Assembly: GCA_949284545.1 (NCBI GenBank)
Contig: CASDVX010000069.1
Location: 1-54,046, forward strand
Source: an uncultured Eubacteriales bacterium
GTDB lineage: Bacteria; Bacillota; Clostridia; Oscillospirales; CAJFTT01
DNA length: 54,046 bases
Reading direction: 5' to 3'
A program made the translations under genes and the position numbers. This document shows, piece by piece, positions 43,198 to 47,789 of this stretch (position 1 is the first letter of the stretch; every line of letters starts with the position of its first letter). The notes under the pieces were generated by a model that was not told the DNA's origin, searched no databases, and was given only the letters and a program-made list of their open reading frames with translations.

Positions 43198-44319
43198 TCA
43201 TCCCTCTTGCATGAGAATTCTTTCAAGATGCACTGCTTCGGTTTCAATATTAAAAGGTCCCGTTTTTGCAGCGTCGTTCCACTTAGTCCGTTCCGGCAAA
43301 ACGGCGCATTCTTTGAGTATCCTGTCCGCCCAGCTCCCCGGTGGATCGCTCAGCGGTATGAAGTGCATTATTTCATCCGAAAATCCCACGATTTTCGGCA
43401 CCGCGCCGGCTGAAGCAAAGCAGTGAAGCCCCGACGCCTGCGCCTCAACGAGAACTATCCCCAGTCCTTCGGACAGCGAAGGCAGTATGAGGCAGTCCAT
43501 CGCCTGATATATTTCGCTAAGGTCCGTTCTTCTGCCGAGAAAGTGCACGCTGCCGGCAATTTGCATTTTTTCTGCCTTCTTTACCATTGCATCCCTGCAA
43601 TCGCCGTCCCCGACGACCAGAAACACCGCCCCGTTTTTCCTCTTACTGATTTCGTAAAAAACATCCATCAGGAAATCCGGATTTTTTTCGGTGGAAAGAC
43701 GACCTGCAAATCCTGCGGCAAACTCTCCGCCTATCCCCATCTCCGCGCGCTTTTTGTCCCGCACGGCCTGCGAAAACCTGTATTTTTCCACCTCTACGCC
43801 GTTATATACCGTTTCGGCGCGACTTGGTCCGGAAAATTTTTTCCCAAACATGAAGCGGCCGGATTCTTCCGAATTTGTCAGCCTTATGCATTTTATCAGA
43901 CCCAATATTTTTCTGCACGTCACATGCAAGAGCCTGTAAAGCATTCCTCTGCCCGGCATACCGCTGTTATGAGCGTGCATGACTATGCGGTAGTTTAATA
44001 GCCTGCACATTGCGACGGCGGAAGTATGGCACATGGAAAAAAGGTTGAAGTAGGCTACATTGTGGTCTTTCCTTGCCGCCTTTGCGGTCTTCCACGATTC
44101 ATGCAAAAATTTCAGCGGGTTTTTCCTGTACGAGGTAACCATGTATATCCTGCCGCCTTTTGCACGTATGCGGTCCGCGTGAACGCATCTTTCTCCCACT
44201 ATCACGTAATCGAACACGCATCTCTCGCTCATATGCTCGCTCATGCCGAGCACAAAGCTTTCTATGCCCCCGGACACCTCGCCGGACACGCCGTATACCA
44301 GCACCCTCATCGTTTTCAC
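43198..44319 (-). CDS. Glycosyltransferase family 4 (GT-B, GT1 superfamily)
   Basis: MRVLVYGVSGEVSGGIESFV... and the C-terminal motif LPSLSEGLGIVLVEAQASG (the E-x7-E region). Confidence 0.85.
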   Translation of the reverse strand: MKTMRVLVYGVSGEVSGGIESFVLGMSEHMSERCVFDYVIVGERCVHADRIRAKGGRIYMVTSYRKNPLKFLHESWKTAKAARKDHNVAYFNLFSMCHTSAVAMCRLLNYRIVMHAHNSGMPGRGMLYRLLHVTCRKILGLIKCIRLTNSEESGRFMFGKKFSGPSRAETVYNGVEVEKYRFSQAVRDKKRAEMGIGGEFAAGFAGRLSTEKNPDFLMDVFYEISKRKNGAVFLVVGDGDCRDAMVKKAEKMQIAGSVHFLGRRTDLSEIYQAMDCLILPSLSEGLGIVLVEAQASGLHCFASAGAVPKIVGFSDEIMHFIPLSDPPGSWADRILKECAVLPERTKWNDAAKTGPFNIETEAVHLERILMQEG

Positions 44320-45551
44320 CTGTATACTGCCGTACGCGGGAAGGTCTCGGCCCGGTCCAAAACTATGCGCCTACCCTGCTCTGAGGAAAGGTACGCGGCA
44401 TAAACCACCTTTACGGTGTCCTTTGCCAGCTCAAAGCCTGATTTGGGTTCCCGGTCAAACGCCACCGATTCCATAAAATCCTGCATTTCGTTGGTGTAGC
44501 CTCGTATGATCTCGTCAGCTATAAAAGGGTTGTTCCATCCGCATTTGCTTGTCAGCATCTCCGATATGTAAACGTCATCGAGTCCGTCCTCATCAAGCAT
44601 ATAGCTGCTCATAATGTTGTTTAAGGTCAGTGTGCAGGTGATGGCCGCGTCGTTGCAGTAGAGCTCGACCTGGTTTTTGCTGCCGCCGAGCAGCGTGTCA
44701 CAGGCGATCGTCACAGCGCGCGTCCCGTCGGAAAATTCCACTATGCACGTGCTTGTATCCTCCACGTCCTGCGGTTTTGCTGCGATGTGACGGTGCTCAT
44801 ATTCGCTGAGCCCGCCCGTTACACAGGTCATATCCGCAACCACGCTTTTGACGCTTATTTCCTTTCCGGAAGCAAGCGCTTCCTGCCGCTTCAGCCACAG
44901 CATCGCGGAAAGCGGATGCGTACCCGTGCGTATGAACGTTCCCCCGCCTGTTTTTGACCATTCTCCGGCCACGGCGGAGCTTGACCCTTTGAGACTTTCT
45001 TCGCCTTTCATATAAAGTATCCTGCTTTTTTTTGCCGTTACGATCTCCGCCGCCTTGAGTATTGCAGGCGCGTAAACAAAGTTTTCCGCATACATCAGCC
45101 GTTTTCCCGAAATCTTCATGGCGCTTTCAATGCGTTCCATGTCTGCAAGGCATGACAGGTACATTTTTTCCTTGGACACGCTGCCGACCGGGCAGGAGTC
45201 GCCCGCCCTCCCGAAATAGCCGGTAAGGGGTTTTTCACATATAACGTGCTTGCCGTTTTCAAATGCCCGTATGGCTTCCTCGGCATGCATATACGGCGGT
45301 GTGCATATATCCACGACATCCACTTCCGGGTCGTTCAGAATGTCGTTATAATCCGTTGTTATGCGTTCGAAGGGATAGCGGCCCACTGCGTCCAAAAGCT
45401 GCCGTTCCCTGCGCGCGAATATCCATTTATACCGTATGCCGATCCCGTGCACGCCTCTGTATCCGCTCATATGTAATTCCGCGCCGCGTCCTGCGCCCAG
45501 CATGGCTATTGTAACTTTTTCGGTCATGTGTCCACCCCGGATCCTTGTCAT
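44316..45551 (-). CDS. Gfo/Idh/MocA family NAD(P)-dependent oxidoreductase
   Basis: KVTIAMLGAGRGAELH (Rossmann), VDICTPPYMHAEEA, VICEKPL. ATGA overlap with the upstream stop. Confidence 0.85.
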   Translation of the reverse strand: MTRIRGGHMTEKVTIAMLGAGRGAELHMSGYRGVHGIGIRYKWIFARRERQLLDAVGRYPFERITTDYNDILNDPEVDVVDICTPPYMHAEEAIRAFENGKHVICEKPLTGYFGRAGDSCPVGSVSKEKMYLSCLADMERIESAMKISGKRLMYAENFVYAPAILKAAEIVTAKKSRILYMKGEESLKGSSSAVAGEWSKTGGGTFIRTGTHPLSAMLWLKRQEALASGKEISVKSVVADMTCVTGGLSEYEHRHIAAKPQDVEDTSTCIVEFSDGTRAVTIACDTLLGGSKNQVELYCNDAAITCTLTLNNIMSSYMLDEDGLDDVYISEMLTSKCGWNNPFIADEIIRGYTNEMQDFMESVAFDREPKSGFELAKDTVKVVYAAYLSSEQGRRIVLDRAETFPRTAVYR

Positions 45552-46414: not shown

Positions 46415-46556
46415 TTTCTCCACTCCTGCCGTAACGTTTAGGTGTTCCCTGCTCTGGCCTGCCGCAATGTTCACCGCCCGCGGCAGCCGCGGACGTAAAA
46501 ACGCTTCTGTTGCGGCAGGTATGCGGACAGCAGGCCGGCGCCCTTCCCATATGTTT

Positions 46557-47789
46557 TCACCTCAGGGCTTCCTCTCTCTGCTTTATCAGGACCTTAATTT
46601 CCGATTGTCTCTGTATCATAACCCACATCATTTCCTCGTATGTGTCGAAACGTGTAAACAGAAACCCCACGGGATCGGATTTGTGGTTTTTTATGACATA
46701 TCCCGGGTCATGAAGCTTTTTTTCGCTGTAAACGTACCTGCGTATGTCCGGCGGAACCCGTATGCCGTCAAATACTCCGTCTTCCTCGGCTATCAGCGCG
46801 CGGTACGCCCAAAAGCCGTTCTGAACAACCTTTTCGGGAAAGTCCTTTACGCCGAATCCGCATTTTGCTCGCGCTTCCCAATAATCCCAATCGAACCCGC
46901 CGCACAGTCCCTCTGCCGGGATTCCGTAGAGGTTTCCGAGCACCCTTCGCATACATTCGAGAATGTATGCGTTGCCGCCGTTGAGTATGTACTGAAGGTG
47001 AAATATCCCGTCGGAAAGATTTAACGCCCGGGCAATGCGTTCTATCTGTCCCACAAGATCACTGCACACGGCTTCCGTACACGCCGCGGGGAAGGTATCC
47101 GCTTCTACCCGGTAGGGATTTATAAAGGAATGTTCGTTATTGGAACACACCGCTGCAACCCTCTGGTTTATCAGATAAGTACACAGGCCGTGCTGAGTTC
47201 CCTCTATAAAAGGTTCTATCACTACCCGCTTGACCCTTGAGCTTTCAAAGGCGGTTTTTATGCGTTCGCACAGCTCGCCGGCACTGTCGGCGCGGCATAT
47301 CCCGTTTCCTGCGCTCAGGTCCGCGGGTTTCACAATAAGCGGGAACTCGTGTCTGGACAGTTTTGCCCACCGGGAAGCTTCCTCCGGATCAGAGAAGGAA
47401 ACCGCCGGAGGAGTGCTTATGTCGCCGAGTTCGGCGGCAAATTCCTTGAATTTTGCCTTATTGTGCAAGATCGTCGCCGTATTGTAATTATCCTGCCCGG
47501 AAAATCCCATTTTTTCGGAGACATATGCCGCGGTCATGACTCCGAAATCGTTGCAGCACGGGCATACCGCGTCCACGTGTTTTTCCTCCGCCAGCGCAAG
47601 CATTGCTTCCTTGTCGGTGTAATCGCCGTATGCGTATTCGTCAGCCTCGCGGTGCCCCGGCAGCCCCGGCCTGTTCCCCGTGGTTATAACGTAGCAGCCC
47701 AGTCTTTTTAACGCTCTCAGGAGCCGTTCGTCGTTATGGCTCGCATTTAGGAGCAGTACGCGTTTCGAAAACATTTCCCCATTTATCAT
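46557..47789 (-). CDS. ATP-grasp domain protein (carboxylate-amine ligase-like)
   Basis: The layout matches an ATP-grasp fold: a pre-ATP-grasp region (VLLLNASHNDERLLRALKRLGCYVITTG), NKAKFKEFAAELG, PLIVKPADLSAGNGI, VIEPFIEGTQH. ATGA overlap with the upstream stop. Confidence 0.8.
   Translation of the reverse strand: MINGEMFSKRVLLLNASHNDERLLRALKRLGCYVITTGNRPGLPGHREADEYAYGDYTDKEAMLALAEEKHVDAVCPCCNDFGVMTAAYVSEKMGFSGQDNYNTATILHNKAKFKEFAAELGDISTPPAVSFSDPEEASRWAKLSRHEFPLIVKPADLSAGNGICRADSAGELCERIKTAFESSRVKRVVIEPFIEGTQHGLCTYLINQRVAAVCSNNEHSFINPYRVEADTFPAACTEAVCSDLVGQIERIARALNLSDGIFHLQYILNGGNAYILECMRRVLGNLYGIPAEGLCGGFDWDYWEARAKCGFGVKDFPEKVVQNGFWAYRALIAEEDGVFDGIRVPPDIRRYVYSEKKLHDPGYVIKNHKSDPVGFLFTRFDTYEEMMWVMIQRQSEIKVLIKQREEALR

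Follow-up and report, generated by a model that had tools for sequence, protein, structure and literature searches.

Why would the enzyme for the first step of the shikimate pathway be encoded inside an operon for a surface polysaccharide? This question is raised by a 54,046-nt stretch of DNA from an uncultured Eubacteriales bacterium, referred to here as the window, to which all of our statements about the host locus are limited. The minus strand of the window carries a Wzx/Wzy-type polysaccharide locus at approximately 36.5-51.6 kb. Within it, three minus-strand open reading frames (ORFs) encode an ATP-grasp enzyme (46557-47789), a type I-beta 3-deoxy-D-arabino-heptulosonate-7-phosphate (DAHP) synthase (45548-46414), and a Gfo/Idh/MocA oxidoreductase (44316-45551). 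They lie between the genes for a small initiating phosphoglycosyl transferase (PGT) and a GT4 glycosyltransferase, as a first-pass annotation of the sequence had placed them and as the ORF list confirms. We found that this trio recurs as a conserved cassette in glycan loci, and it is very probably not a housekeeping accident. We lean towards the view that, together with DegT, RmlA, and RmlB of the same locus, it puts an acid made by way of DAHP onto an amino sugar. Our fuller reading is more tentative, and we hold it at somewhat less than even weight: the cassette may represent a widespread and unrecognised branch at the entry of the shikimate pathway, in which DAHP would be remodelled and attached as a C7 polyhydroxy acyl group (3-deoxyheptonoyl or a phosphate-eliminated form) to the amino sugars of capsules, exopolysaccharides (EPS), and flagellins in many gut bacteria.

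Our data indicate that the middle gene encodes a genuine, orthodox, and unregulated type I-beta DAHP synthase by family, with catalysis predicted from its sequence. The 288-aa protein consists of the catalytic core only, the regulatory domain being absent, and scores 273 bits against Pfam DAHP_synth_1, 428.3 bits against NF006421 (cut-off 335), and 380.9 bits against TIGR01361 (cut-off 267.75). It is 62% identical to the Aeropyrum pernix enzyme (1vs1) and 55% identical to the Pyrococcus furiosus enzyme (1zco), both of which have been crystallised. The motifs GPCSVES, IEVHPSP, KPRSS, QIGSRN, LLKRG, ERGIR, DPSH, and LSD are all present, and GPCSVES, DPSH, IEVHP, LSD, and KPRSS align with the two archaeal enzymes; we take the Cys, His, Glu, and Asp residues to be the metal ligands and KPR(T/S) to be the sugar-phosphate motif. 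The type I-beta assignment had originally been made from motifs including GPCSVES and IEVHPSP, and the scores above the NCBIfam cut-offs and the match to the A. pernix enzyme bear it out. An AGGAG ribosome-binding site and agreement with homologues of 274 aa lead us to place the start of the gene at the ATG at 46414; the ORF list starts the frame further upstream, at a GTG (46474). Two related identities were rejected, namely 3-deoxy-D-manno-octulosonate-8-phosphate (KDO8P) synthase (TIGR01362, 118.9 bits versus a cut-off of 314) and NeuB/PseI/LegI (PseI, 24 bits versus a cut-off of 340, with a weak Pfam NeuB match of 32 bits that overlaps the 273-bit DAHP_synth_1 match). The BagF/FevY model NF041229 returned 296 bits, far under its cut-off of 700. 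Substitutions specific to the clade of the window enzyme were listed against the two archaeal structures. All four of the nearest relatives that we examined (67-75% identical) adjoin the cassette oxidoreductase and none lies in an aro operon. Profile searches of the window proteins found no aro genes in the 54 kb.

Does the DAHP synthase belong to this setting, or did it arrive by chance? The first-pass annotation had left open how widely the trio is conserved in other EPS loci. We assembled a set of 58 non-redundant loci, each with an oxidoreductase of at least 57% identity, and the trio recurs among them as a conserved gene set in unrelated taxa. One of the two refuting cases set out in the first-pass annotation, a trio without counterpart in related EPS loci, is thereby contradicted. 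A DAHP synthase lies within 6 kb of the oxidoreductase in 31 of the 58 loci, which is a lower bound because many locus contigs are incomplete, and we estimate the chance expectation at less than 1%. The synthase is of type I-beta in 10 of these loci and of type I-alpha (AroFGH-like) in the other 21, the type I-alpha enzymes of the cassette scoring 261-266 bits against TIGR00034 (cut-off 173). That two non-orthologous classes serve one cassette suggests that DAHP synthesis itself is wanted, and not a neofunctionalised aldolase. Within the same 6 kb, an ATP-grasp enzyme is found in 49 of 58 loci, a count inflated by the 43 species-level loci that were retrieved with the ATP-grasp as bait, and an AMP (adenosine monophosphate)-ligase is found in 9. 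One or the other activating enzyme is present in 56 of 58 loci, and the two loci without either are fragments of less than 3.6 kb. A DegT orthologue (42-67% identical) or LegC lies within 10 kb in 35 of the loci, RmlA or RmlB occurs in 16, and an FkbM methyltransferase occurs in 12.

The loci retrieved with the ATP-grasp come from Oscillospiraceae, Lachnospiraceae, Christensenellaceae, Eggerthellaceae, Bacteroidia, Selenomonadaceae, Fibrobacter, Victivallaceae/Lentisphaeria, and Alpha- and Betaproteobacteria. The picture agrees with that from a metagenome set retrieved with the oxidoreductase and from the set around the nearest DAHP synthases. Overall, the cassette spans approximately seven phyla, and its settings are of two kinds, capsule or EPS loci on the one hand and flagellin glycosylation islands on the other. 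In the Bacteroides capsule operon, the gene order is UpxY, UpxZ, RmlA, Wzx, DegT, oxidoreductase, type I-alpha DAHP synthase, and ATP-grasp, followed by glycosyltransferases, and the Bacteroides oxidoreductase is indexed in approximately 8000 assembly blocks. In Bacteroides fragilis, such an operon is found at 1.787-1.808 Mb of CP117955.1, and its oxidoreductase is UniProt I9ASS6. The flagellin glycosylation island of a common gut Lachnospiraceae-like organism combines DegT, DAHP synthase, ATP-grasp, and oxidoreductase with Maf, NeuB, and a CMP (cytidine monophosphate)-transferase. In Lysinibacillus, Anoxybacter, and several metagenome-assembled genomes (MAGs), an AMP-ligase and a small carrier protein replace the ATP-grasp, and the oxidoreductase is often accompanied by a type I-beta DAHP synthase. 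This variant adjoins a complete LegB/LegC/NeuB route to legionaminic acid (LegC, 554 bits, cut-off 420), a deacetylase, and a protein of approximately 350 aa; some variant loci have no aminotransferase nearby. The best matches of the carrier protein are DltC and AsbD.

Several of these loci contain further genes. The protein of approximately 350 aa always accompanies the AMP-ligase and carrier, beside a polysaccharide deacetylase (L051, 8825-9871; L135, 357-1406; L137, 2927-4009); sequence searches of Pfam, NCBIfam, and the PDB gave no match for it, and we regard it as a candidate acyl-carrier-to-amine acyltransferase. On a 3.3-Mb contig of a Christensenellaceae MAG (L001, 8773-15595), the cassette ATP-grasp is present as two tandem paralogues, after which come the oxidoreductase, a type I-alpha DAHP synthase, a formyltransferase, and a third ATP-grasp, which is PylC-like. 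Upstream, between RmlB and the ATP-grasp, is the gene for a WecF-like GT56, which we count in favour of the pathway proposed below. The gene set of L001 may build a more elaborate acyl or peptidyl substituent. In two other loci (L014, 6216-9996; L016, after the DAHP synthase), a split transketolase with N and C subunits, a radical SAM/SPASM protein, and an FkbM methyltransferase directly adjoin the ATP-grasp, the oxidoreductase, and the DAHP synthase, and the transketolase could be a supplier of erythrose-4-phosphate.

What does the oxidoreductase act on? This 411-aa protein is the invariant core of the cassette. It passes the cut-offs of Pfam PF01408 (GFO_IDH_MocA, 57.9 bits, cut-off 24) and of the C-terminal domain families PF22725 (32.2 bits) and PF02894 (27.5 bits), and carries the EKP motif (ICEKPL). 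Its AlphaFold2 (AF2) model has a predicted local distance difference test (pLDDT) score of 73, and by Foldseek the model comes closest to GenD2, KanD2, inositol dehydrogenases, and levoglucosan dehydrogenase. At the sequence level it resembles solved structures in the N-terminal Rossmann domain only, and the specific identities of inositol 2-dehydrogenase, levoglucosan dehydrogenase, and UDP-GlcNAc 3-dehydrogenase were rejected, at 31-69 bits versus cut-offs of 355-650 and over the N-terminal part only. Orthologues in Bacteroides, Lysinibacillus, Paenibacillus, and Clostridia are 62-79% identical, with a mean column identity of 75%, and the window protein is 64% identical to those of Bacteroides fragilis, Lysinibacillus, Paenibacillus, and Cohnella. 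This orthologue group was found only in glycan cassettes. Its many invariant Lys, Arg, and His residues (K182, K188, R208, H212, H253-R254-H255, and R350) suggest a substrate pocket for an anion. An identity of 62-64% is kept when the partners change, both from ATP-grasp to AMP-ligase with carrier and from a DesI-like DegT with RmlAB to LegB/LegC. We reasoned that an enzyme conserved despite such changes acts on a small acid that the loci share and not on a nucleotide sugar. Action on a nucleoside diphosphate (NDP)-sugar, or supply of the keto group for DegT, is disfavoured by the same identity under either sugar route; moreover, RmlB and the LegB/LegC route make their own 4-keto group, so the aminotransferase does not need the oxidoreductase for it.

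More distant paralogues (43-55% identical; L062-L112 and L129, from soil and sediment metagenomes) lie beside LivHMGF-type ABC transporters, TctC receptors, LysR regulators, and short-chain dehydrogenases/reductases, and not beside glycan genes. These transporter contexts suggest that the wider subfamily handles carboxylated substrates, and the soil and sediment paralogue is probably a catabolic enzyme for a carboxylated polyol. The substrate of that paralogue, once identified, could reveal the chemistry of the cassette oxidoreductase.

Where would such an acid go? The ATP-grasp enzyme (410 aa) matches Pfam GARS_A at 29.8 bits (cut-off 27), and its AF2 model (pLDDT 88) has the ATP-grasp fold. 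The top Foldseek matches are 4dim, an uncharacterised structural-genomics protein, and the L-amino-acid ligases 3vot and 4wd3 (template modeling (TM) score approximately 0.8), followed by biotin carboxylases and PurT; E-values to 4dim, 3vot, biotin carboxylases, and PurT range from 1e-28 to 1e-21. PurT, PurD, and Ddl were each rejected as its specific identity (19-49 bits versus cut-offs of 245-502). Homologues form more than 650 clusters, of which the best 120 are at least 50% identical, and the window enzyme is 49% identical over its full length to a protein of a Bacteroides fragilis capsule locus. From this sequence and model evidence, the enzyme appears to be of the carboxylate-amine ligase type, and we propose it as the N-acylating enzyme.

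The proposed amine acceptor would be supplied by three genes of the same strand. These encode a DegT-family sugar 4-aminotransferase (50485-51600; Pfam DegT_DnrJ_EryC1, 303 bits), RmlA, a glucose-1-phosphate thymidylyltransferase (49580-50458; TIGR01207, 444 bits, cut-off 361), and RmlB, a dTDP (deoxythymidine diphosphate)-glucose 4,6-dehydratase (48526-49593; TIGR01181, 467 bits, cut-off 365). The best NCBIfam match of the window DegT is DesI, a dTDP-4-dehydro-6-deoxyglucose aminotransferase, at 271 bits, which is under the equivalog cut-off. The PGT gene (47786-48529, minus strand; Bac_transf, Pfam PF02397, 171 bits) separates RmlB from the ATP-grasp. The trio had been described as translationally coupled; 4-nt start/stop overlaps at the PGT/ATP-grasp and DAHP synthase/oxidoreductase junctions agree with this description, whereas a gap of 142 nt between the ATP-grasp stop and the DAHP synthase start does not.

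Two alternatives had been put forward for the product of the trio. In one, a heptulosonic-type acid would itself be a glycosyl residue of the polymer. This is disfavoured, as the cassette contains no CMP-transferase; the noted absence of such an enzyme was upheld by profile searches, which found no CMP-transferase or cytidylyltransferase in the locus or the window. In the other, the ATP-grasp would amide-link the acid to the amino sugar made by DegT/RmlAB, and this alternative is favoured by comparative genomics and by the lack of any other N-acyltransferase in the window locus in profile searches. Taken as a whole, the earlier interpretation is partly supported. Two different carboxylate-activating chemistries accompany amino-sugar routes across the loci, and together with the absence of other N-acyltransferases and CMP-transferases from the window locus this points to N-acylation of an amino sugar.

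Taken together, these data lead us to propose the following pathway. The DAHP synthase of the locus would condense phosphoenolpyruvate (PEP) and erythrose-4-phosphate into a DAHP pool dedicated to the locus, and the oxidoreductase would convert DAHP into the acid actually used. We prefer a reduction of the 2-keto group to give 3-deoxyheptonic acid, by analogy to the acyl groups of Vibrio cholerae O1 perosamine and Treponema denticola flagellin discussed below; the FkbM methyltransferase of 12 loci would fit 2-O-methylation of such an acid. A serious alternative, given that the fold neighbours of the oxidoreductase are ring-alcohol dehydrogenases, is that the DAHP pyranose is oxidised at C4 or C5, whether or not phosphate is also eliminated in the manner of 3-dehydroquinate (DHQ) synthase. 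The ATP-grasp would then activate the carboxylate as an acyl phosphate, and the acyl group would be transferred to the 4-amino group of dTDP-4-amino-4,6-dideoxyhexose, the expected product of RmlA, RmlB, and DegT, with formation of an amide. The N-acylated sugar would join a short repeat unit assembled by the PGT and a single GT4, for which a pyruvyl transferase is also encoded, and export would follow the Wzx/Wzy route. In other bacteria, the oxidoreductase and the DAHP synthase would work with the AMP-ligase and carrier protein, and legionaminic- or pseudaminic-type flagellin sugars would be decorated.

Several points weigh against this pathway. Only 53% of loci have a DAHP synthase within 6 kb, and many hosts would need to draw on housekeeping DAHP; the use of the ATP-grasp as bait also biases the sampling. 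Gfo/Idh/MocA enzymes typically oxidise secondary alcohols of rings, so that a 2-keto-acid reductase would be an unusual member, and the nearest structures to the oxidoreductase are GenD2, KanD2, and inositol dehydrogenases. No phosphatase recurs among 113 immediate cassette neighbours, which leaves the fate of the 7-phosphate unexplained; oxidation coupled to phosphate elimination would account for this absence. To our knowledge, PGTs and ATP-grasp ligases that act on dTDP-sugars are poorly precedented. Finally, the whole DAHP-acid pathway is a proposal from sequence comparison and structure prediction, and the acid named above is our preferred guess.

Could a later intermediate of the shikimate pathway be the substrate instead? 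We consider this unlikely, though it is the competitor that survives best. In this scheme, the DAHP synthase of the locus would boost flux, as PhzC does in phenazine clusters, and housekeeping AroB (perhaps with AroD) would carry the product to 3-dehydroquinate or 3-dehydroshikimate. The oxidoreductase would reduce or oxidise the carbocycle, giving for example quinate or a shikimate epimer, and the ATP-grasp would amide-link the resulting cyclohexane carboxylic acid. The resemblance of the oxidoreductase to cyclitol and pyranose ring dehydrogenases fits this scheme, as does the finding that approximately half of the loci have no DAHP synthase of their own, a pattern that a general metabolite as substrate would lead one to expect. 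In the AMP-ligase variant, the carrier protein points the same way through its match to AsbD, an aryl carrier for a dehydroshikimate-derived acid, as do the LivK-type and TctC carboxylate transporters and LysR regulators beside the soil paralogues of the oxidoreductase. Against it stands a Pfam census of the 113 immediate unlabelled neighbours, in which no DHQ synthase, DHQ dehydratase, shikimate dehydrogenase, or chorismate-using enzyme recurs (radical SAM genes, at 7 of 113, are among the commonest), and this absence favours direct use of DAHP over use of a later intermediate. In addition, quinoyl and shikimoyl glycans have no precedent known to us. MenD-like and PaaK-like genes go with the pyruvyl transferase and not with the DAHP synthase or the oxidoreductase, which counts against the scheme as well; a link to chorismate through these MenD-like thiamine pyrophosphate (TPP) and PaaK-like adenylating enzymes was rejected on the same co-localisation.

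Two other branches from early shikimate chemistry were considered and rejected. For a pathway of the aminoshikimate or 3-amino-5-hydroxybenzoate (AHBA) kind (compare RifL/RifK/RifH), the window contains no aminoDHQ synthase, aminoDHQ dehydratase, AHBA synthase, or kanosamine genes, none recurs among the neighbours, and the window DegT is collinear with RmlAB. Mycosporine-like chemistry, which combines an ATP-grasp with a shikimate-type precursor and was the only overlap of these terms in the literature, was set aside for want of a desmethyl-4-deoxygadusol (DDG) or 2-epi-5-epi-valiolone (EEVS) synthase.

It is less probable still, and in our judgement quite improbable, that the trio makes a C7 amino-ulosonic sugar resembling sialic acid, in which the oxidoreductase oxidises a ring hydroxyl of DAHP, DegT transaminates the product (as in the NtdC/NtdA and GenD2/GenS2 pairs), the ATP-grasp N-acylates it, and the sugar enters the glycan as a glycosyl residue. 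The structural neighbours GenD2 and KanD2 do pair with DegT-family aminotransferases; DegT often directly adjoins the ATP-grasp and the oxidoreductase; and DAHP synthase is related to KDO8P synthase and NeuB. However, such a residue is hard to reconcile with a window locus that has no CMP-transferase or cytidylyltransferase and whose DegT, collinear with RmlA/RmlB, is most similar to DesI. In the AMP-ligase variants, moreover, either a true LegC, which the route to legionaminic acid requires, is the one aminotransferase present, or none lies in the neighbourhood at all. Last, we give very little credence to the idea that the DAHP synthase, although catalytically orthodox by sequence, is a housekeeping aromatic gene in the operon by chance, beside an ATP-grasp and an oxidoreductase with some unrelated task, such as the attachment of an ordinary amino acid or the amidation of a uronic or pyruvate carboxylate, since 31 of 58 loci in approximately seven phyla have a DAHP synthase of one class or the other within 6 kb, all four nearest relatives are in the cassette, and the Bacteroides capsule operon contains a type I-alpha enzyme.

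The remaining genes of the polysaccharide locus, all on the minus strand, are those expected of a Wzx/Wzy-type system together with additional functions. The GT4 (43198-44319; Pfam Glyco_trans_1_4 and Glycos_transf_1) is the sole non-initiating glycosyltransferase of the locus, and its synteny is kept in four of the surveyed loci (L006, L008, L012, and L133). It is followed by a highly hydrophobic membrane protein (41757-43247), which has no Pfam match and which we assume from its hydrophobicity to be the Wzy polymerase, and by Wzx (40498-41760; Pfam Polysacc_synt). Beyond a polysaccharide pyruvyl transferase (39266-40492; Pfam PS_pyruv_trans) and an FrhB/FdhB-like iron-sulfur (Fe-S) protein (38067-39269; Pfam FrhB_FdhB_C and Fer4) lie Wzz (37256-38053; Pfam Wzz), a P-loop protein resembling BY-kinases (36555-37295; Pfam AAA_31/ParA), and a VanZ-like protein (35986-36558). 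The pair formed by the pyruvyl transferase and the FrhB/FdhB-like Fe-S flavoprotein (38067-40492) recurs in approximately 10 related loci (L002, L006, L008, L012, L017-L019, L025, and L029). Several of them add to the pair a MenD-like TPP enzyme, a PaaK/F390-synthetase-like adenylating enzyme, or a citrate-lyase-ligase-like protein, and this set looks like a second, separate tailoring module.

The remainder of the window contains an arg operon, carAB, glycoside hydrolase and lectin-like genes, ftsK, and bacA. At the EPS locus, a 559-aa ORF (34305-35984, minus strand) has no Pfam match. Between the arg operon and the EPS locus lies a 948-aa CotH kinase-like protein with an InlB B-repeat domain (28233-31079, minus strand), and a radical SAM protein followed by an Orn/Lys/Arg decarboxylase-family protein (31527-34231) is encoded on the plus strand, opposite to the surrounding operons. 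The arg/car operon ends in a 1344-aa ORF (16109-20143, minus strand) in which a complete large subunit of carbamoyl-phosphate synthase, with its CPSase and MGS domains, continues at the C-terminus into two diaminopimelate epimerase domains (approximately residues 1080-1336), an apparent CarB-DapF fusion. F5/8 type C (discoidin, galactose-binding-like) domains are clustered in the first 16 kb of the window, in a GH2-like hydrolase and three separate proteins (2607-5465 on the minus strand; 11082-12548, 14337-14981, and 15256-15942 on the plus strand).

Has this combination been described before? The first-pass annotation knew of no described pathway that combines these genes, and a full-text search of the literature likewise turned up neither the combination nor a glycan substituent derived from DAHP. 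Nor did it find a published account of the very common Bacteroides fragilis capsule locus that carries the cassette, or of the product of that locus. Escherichia coli O-antigen loci, which would offer a route to a known structure, gave no blastn match, and among plasmids only a paralogue of 36% identity was found. The database names of the three proteins are generic ("Gfo/Idh/MocA family", "ATP-grasp", and "DAHP synthase"). N-acyl tailoring cassettes for amino sugars are known; what would be new here is a first-step shikimate enzyme as the supplier of the acyl donor, together with a dedicated and highly conserved oxidoreductase.

If our reading is true, a new building block would be added to the surface glycans of bacteria, and DAHP would gain a new metabolic role besides its part in aromatic biosynthesis. 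Human and animal guts harbour the cassette in abundance, and it also occurs in the phase-variable-type Bacteroides capsule operon that starts with UpxY/UpxZ. The identity of the acyl group would help to solve the structure of the Bacteroides capsule, would help to explain the antigenic diversity of flagellin glycans, and would give three enzymes their first functional annotation. Metabolic reconstructions also call for caution, in that a DAHP synthase gene in a genome with the cassette is not evidence of aromatic amino-acid prototrophy.

How does the cassette compare with known systems? The window synthase shares its fold, family, metal ligands, and KPR(T/S) motif with the type I-beta enzymes of A. 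pernix (1vs1), P. furiosus (1zco), and Thermotoga maritima (1rzm), and is core-only as the archaeal enzymes are. It differs in that its gene lies inside a polysaccharide operon and its clade stands beside the cassette oxidoreductase and not beside aro genes. A PEP-dependent aldolase in a glycan locus is also a feature of the KDO8P synthase and NeuB routes, which, unlike the cassette, include a phosphatase or CMP-transferase partner. DAHP synthase paralogues dedicated to one pathway are known from secondary-metabolite clusters, namely PhzC, BagF/FevY, and the aminoDAHP synthase RifH. As in those clusters, an extra DAHP synthase is co-located here with enzymes that would consume its product; the consumer, however, would be a glycan-tailoring module and not an aromatic natural product pathway, and aminoDHQ/AHBA genes are absent.

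Like GenD2/KanD2 and the inositol and levoglucosan dehydrogenases, the oxidoreductase combines a Rossmann domain with an alpha/beta domain and has the EKP motif, but its similarity to them is only N-terminal, and the cassette orthologue group is unusually conserved at 75% column identity. NanOx/YjhC and the D-apionate oxidoisomerase ApnO indicate that this family can act on ulosonic and aldonic acids. The ATP-grasp resembles known ligases (3vot, RizA (4wd3), PurT, and PurD) in fold, with a TM score of approximately 0.8 to the L-amino-acid ligases, and is expected to form an acyl phosphate that an amine then attacks. Its identity to them is below 20%, no equivalog was passed, and the proposed pair of a sugar acid and an NDP-amino sugar is unlike the substrates of any characterised member. 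A glucuronamide ligase of the ATP-grasp carboxylate-amine type is known in Campylobacter jejuni (Cj1438).

The perosamine of V. cholerae O1 is N-acylated with 3-deoxy-L-glycero-tetronic acid. The nonulosonic acid of T. denticola flagellin bears a 2-methoxy-4,5,6-trihydroxy-hexanoyl group (PMC13439194). The product proposed here is of the same kind as these N-acyl sugars, with a polyhydroxy 3-deoxy acid bound to an amino sugar through an amide, and the FkbM O-methyltransferase is an optional member of the related loci. It would differ from both in that its acid would be C7 and derived from DAHP.

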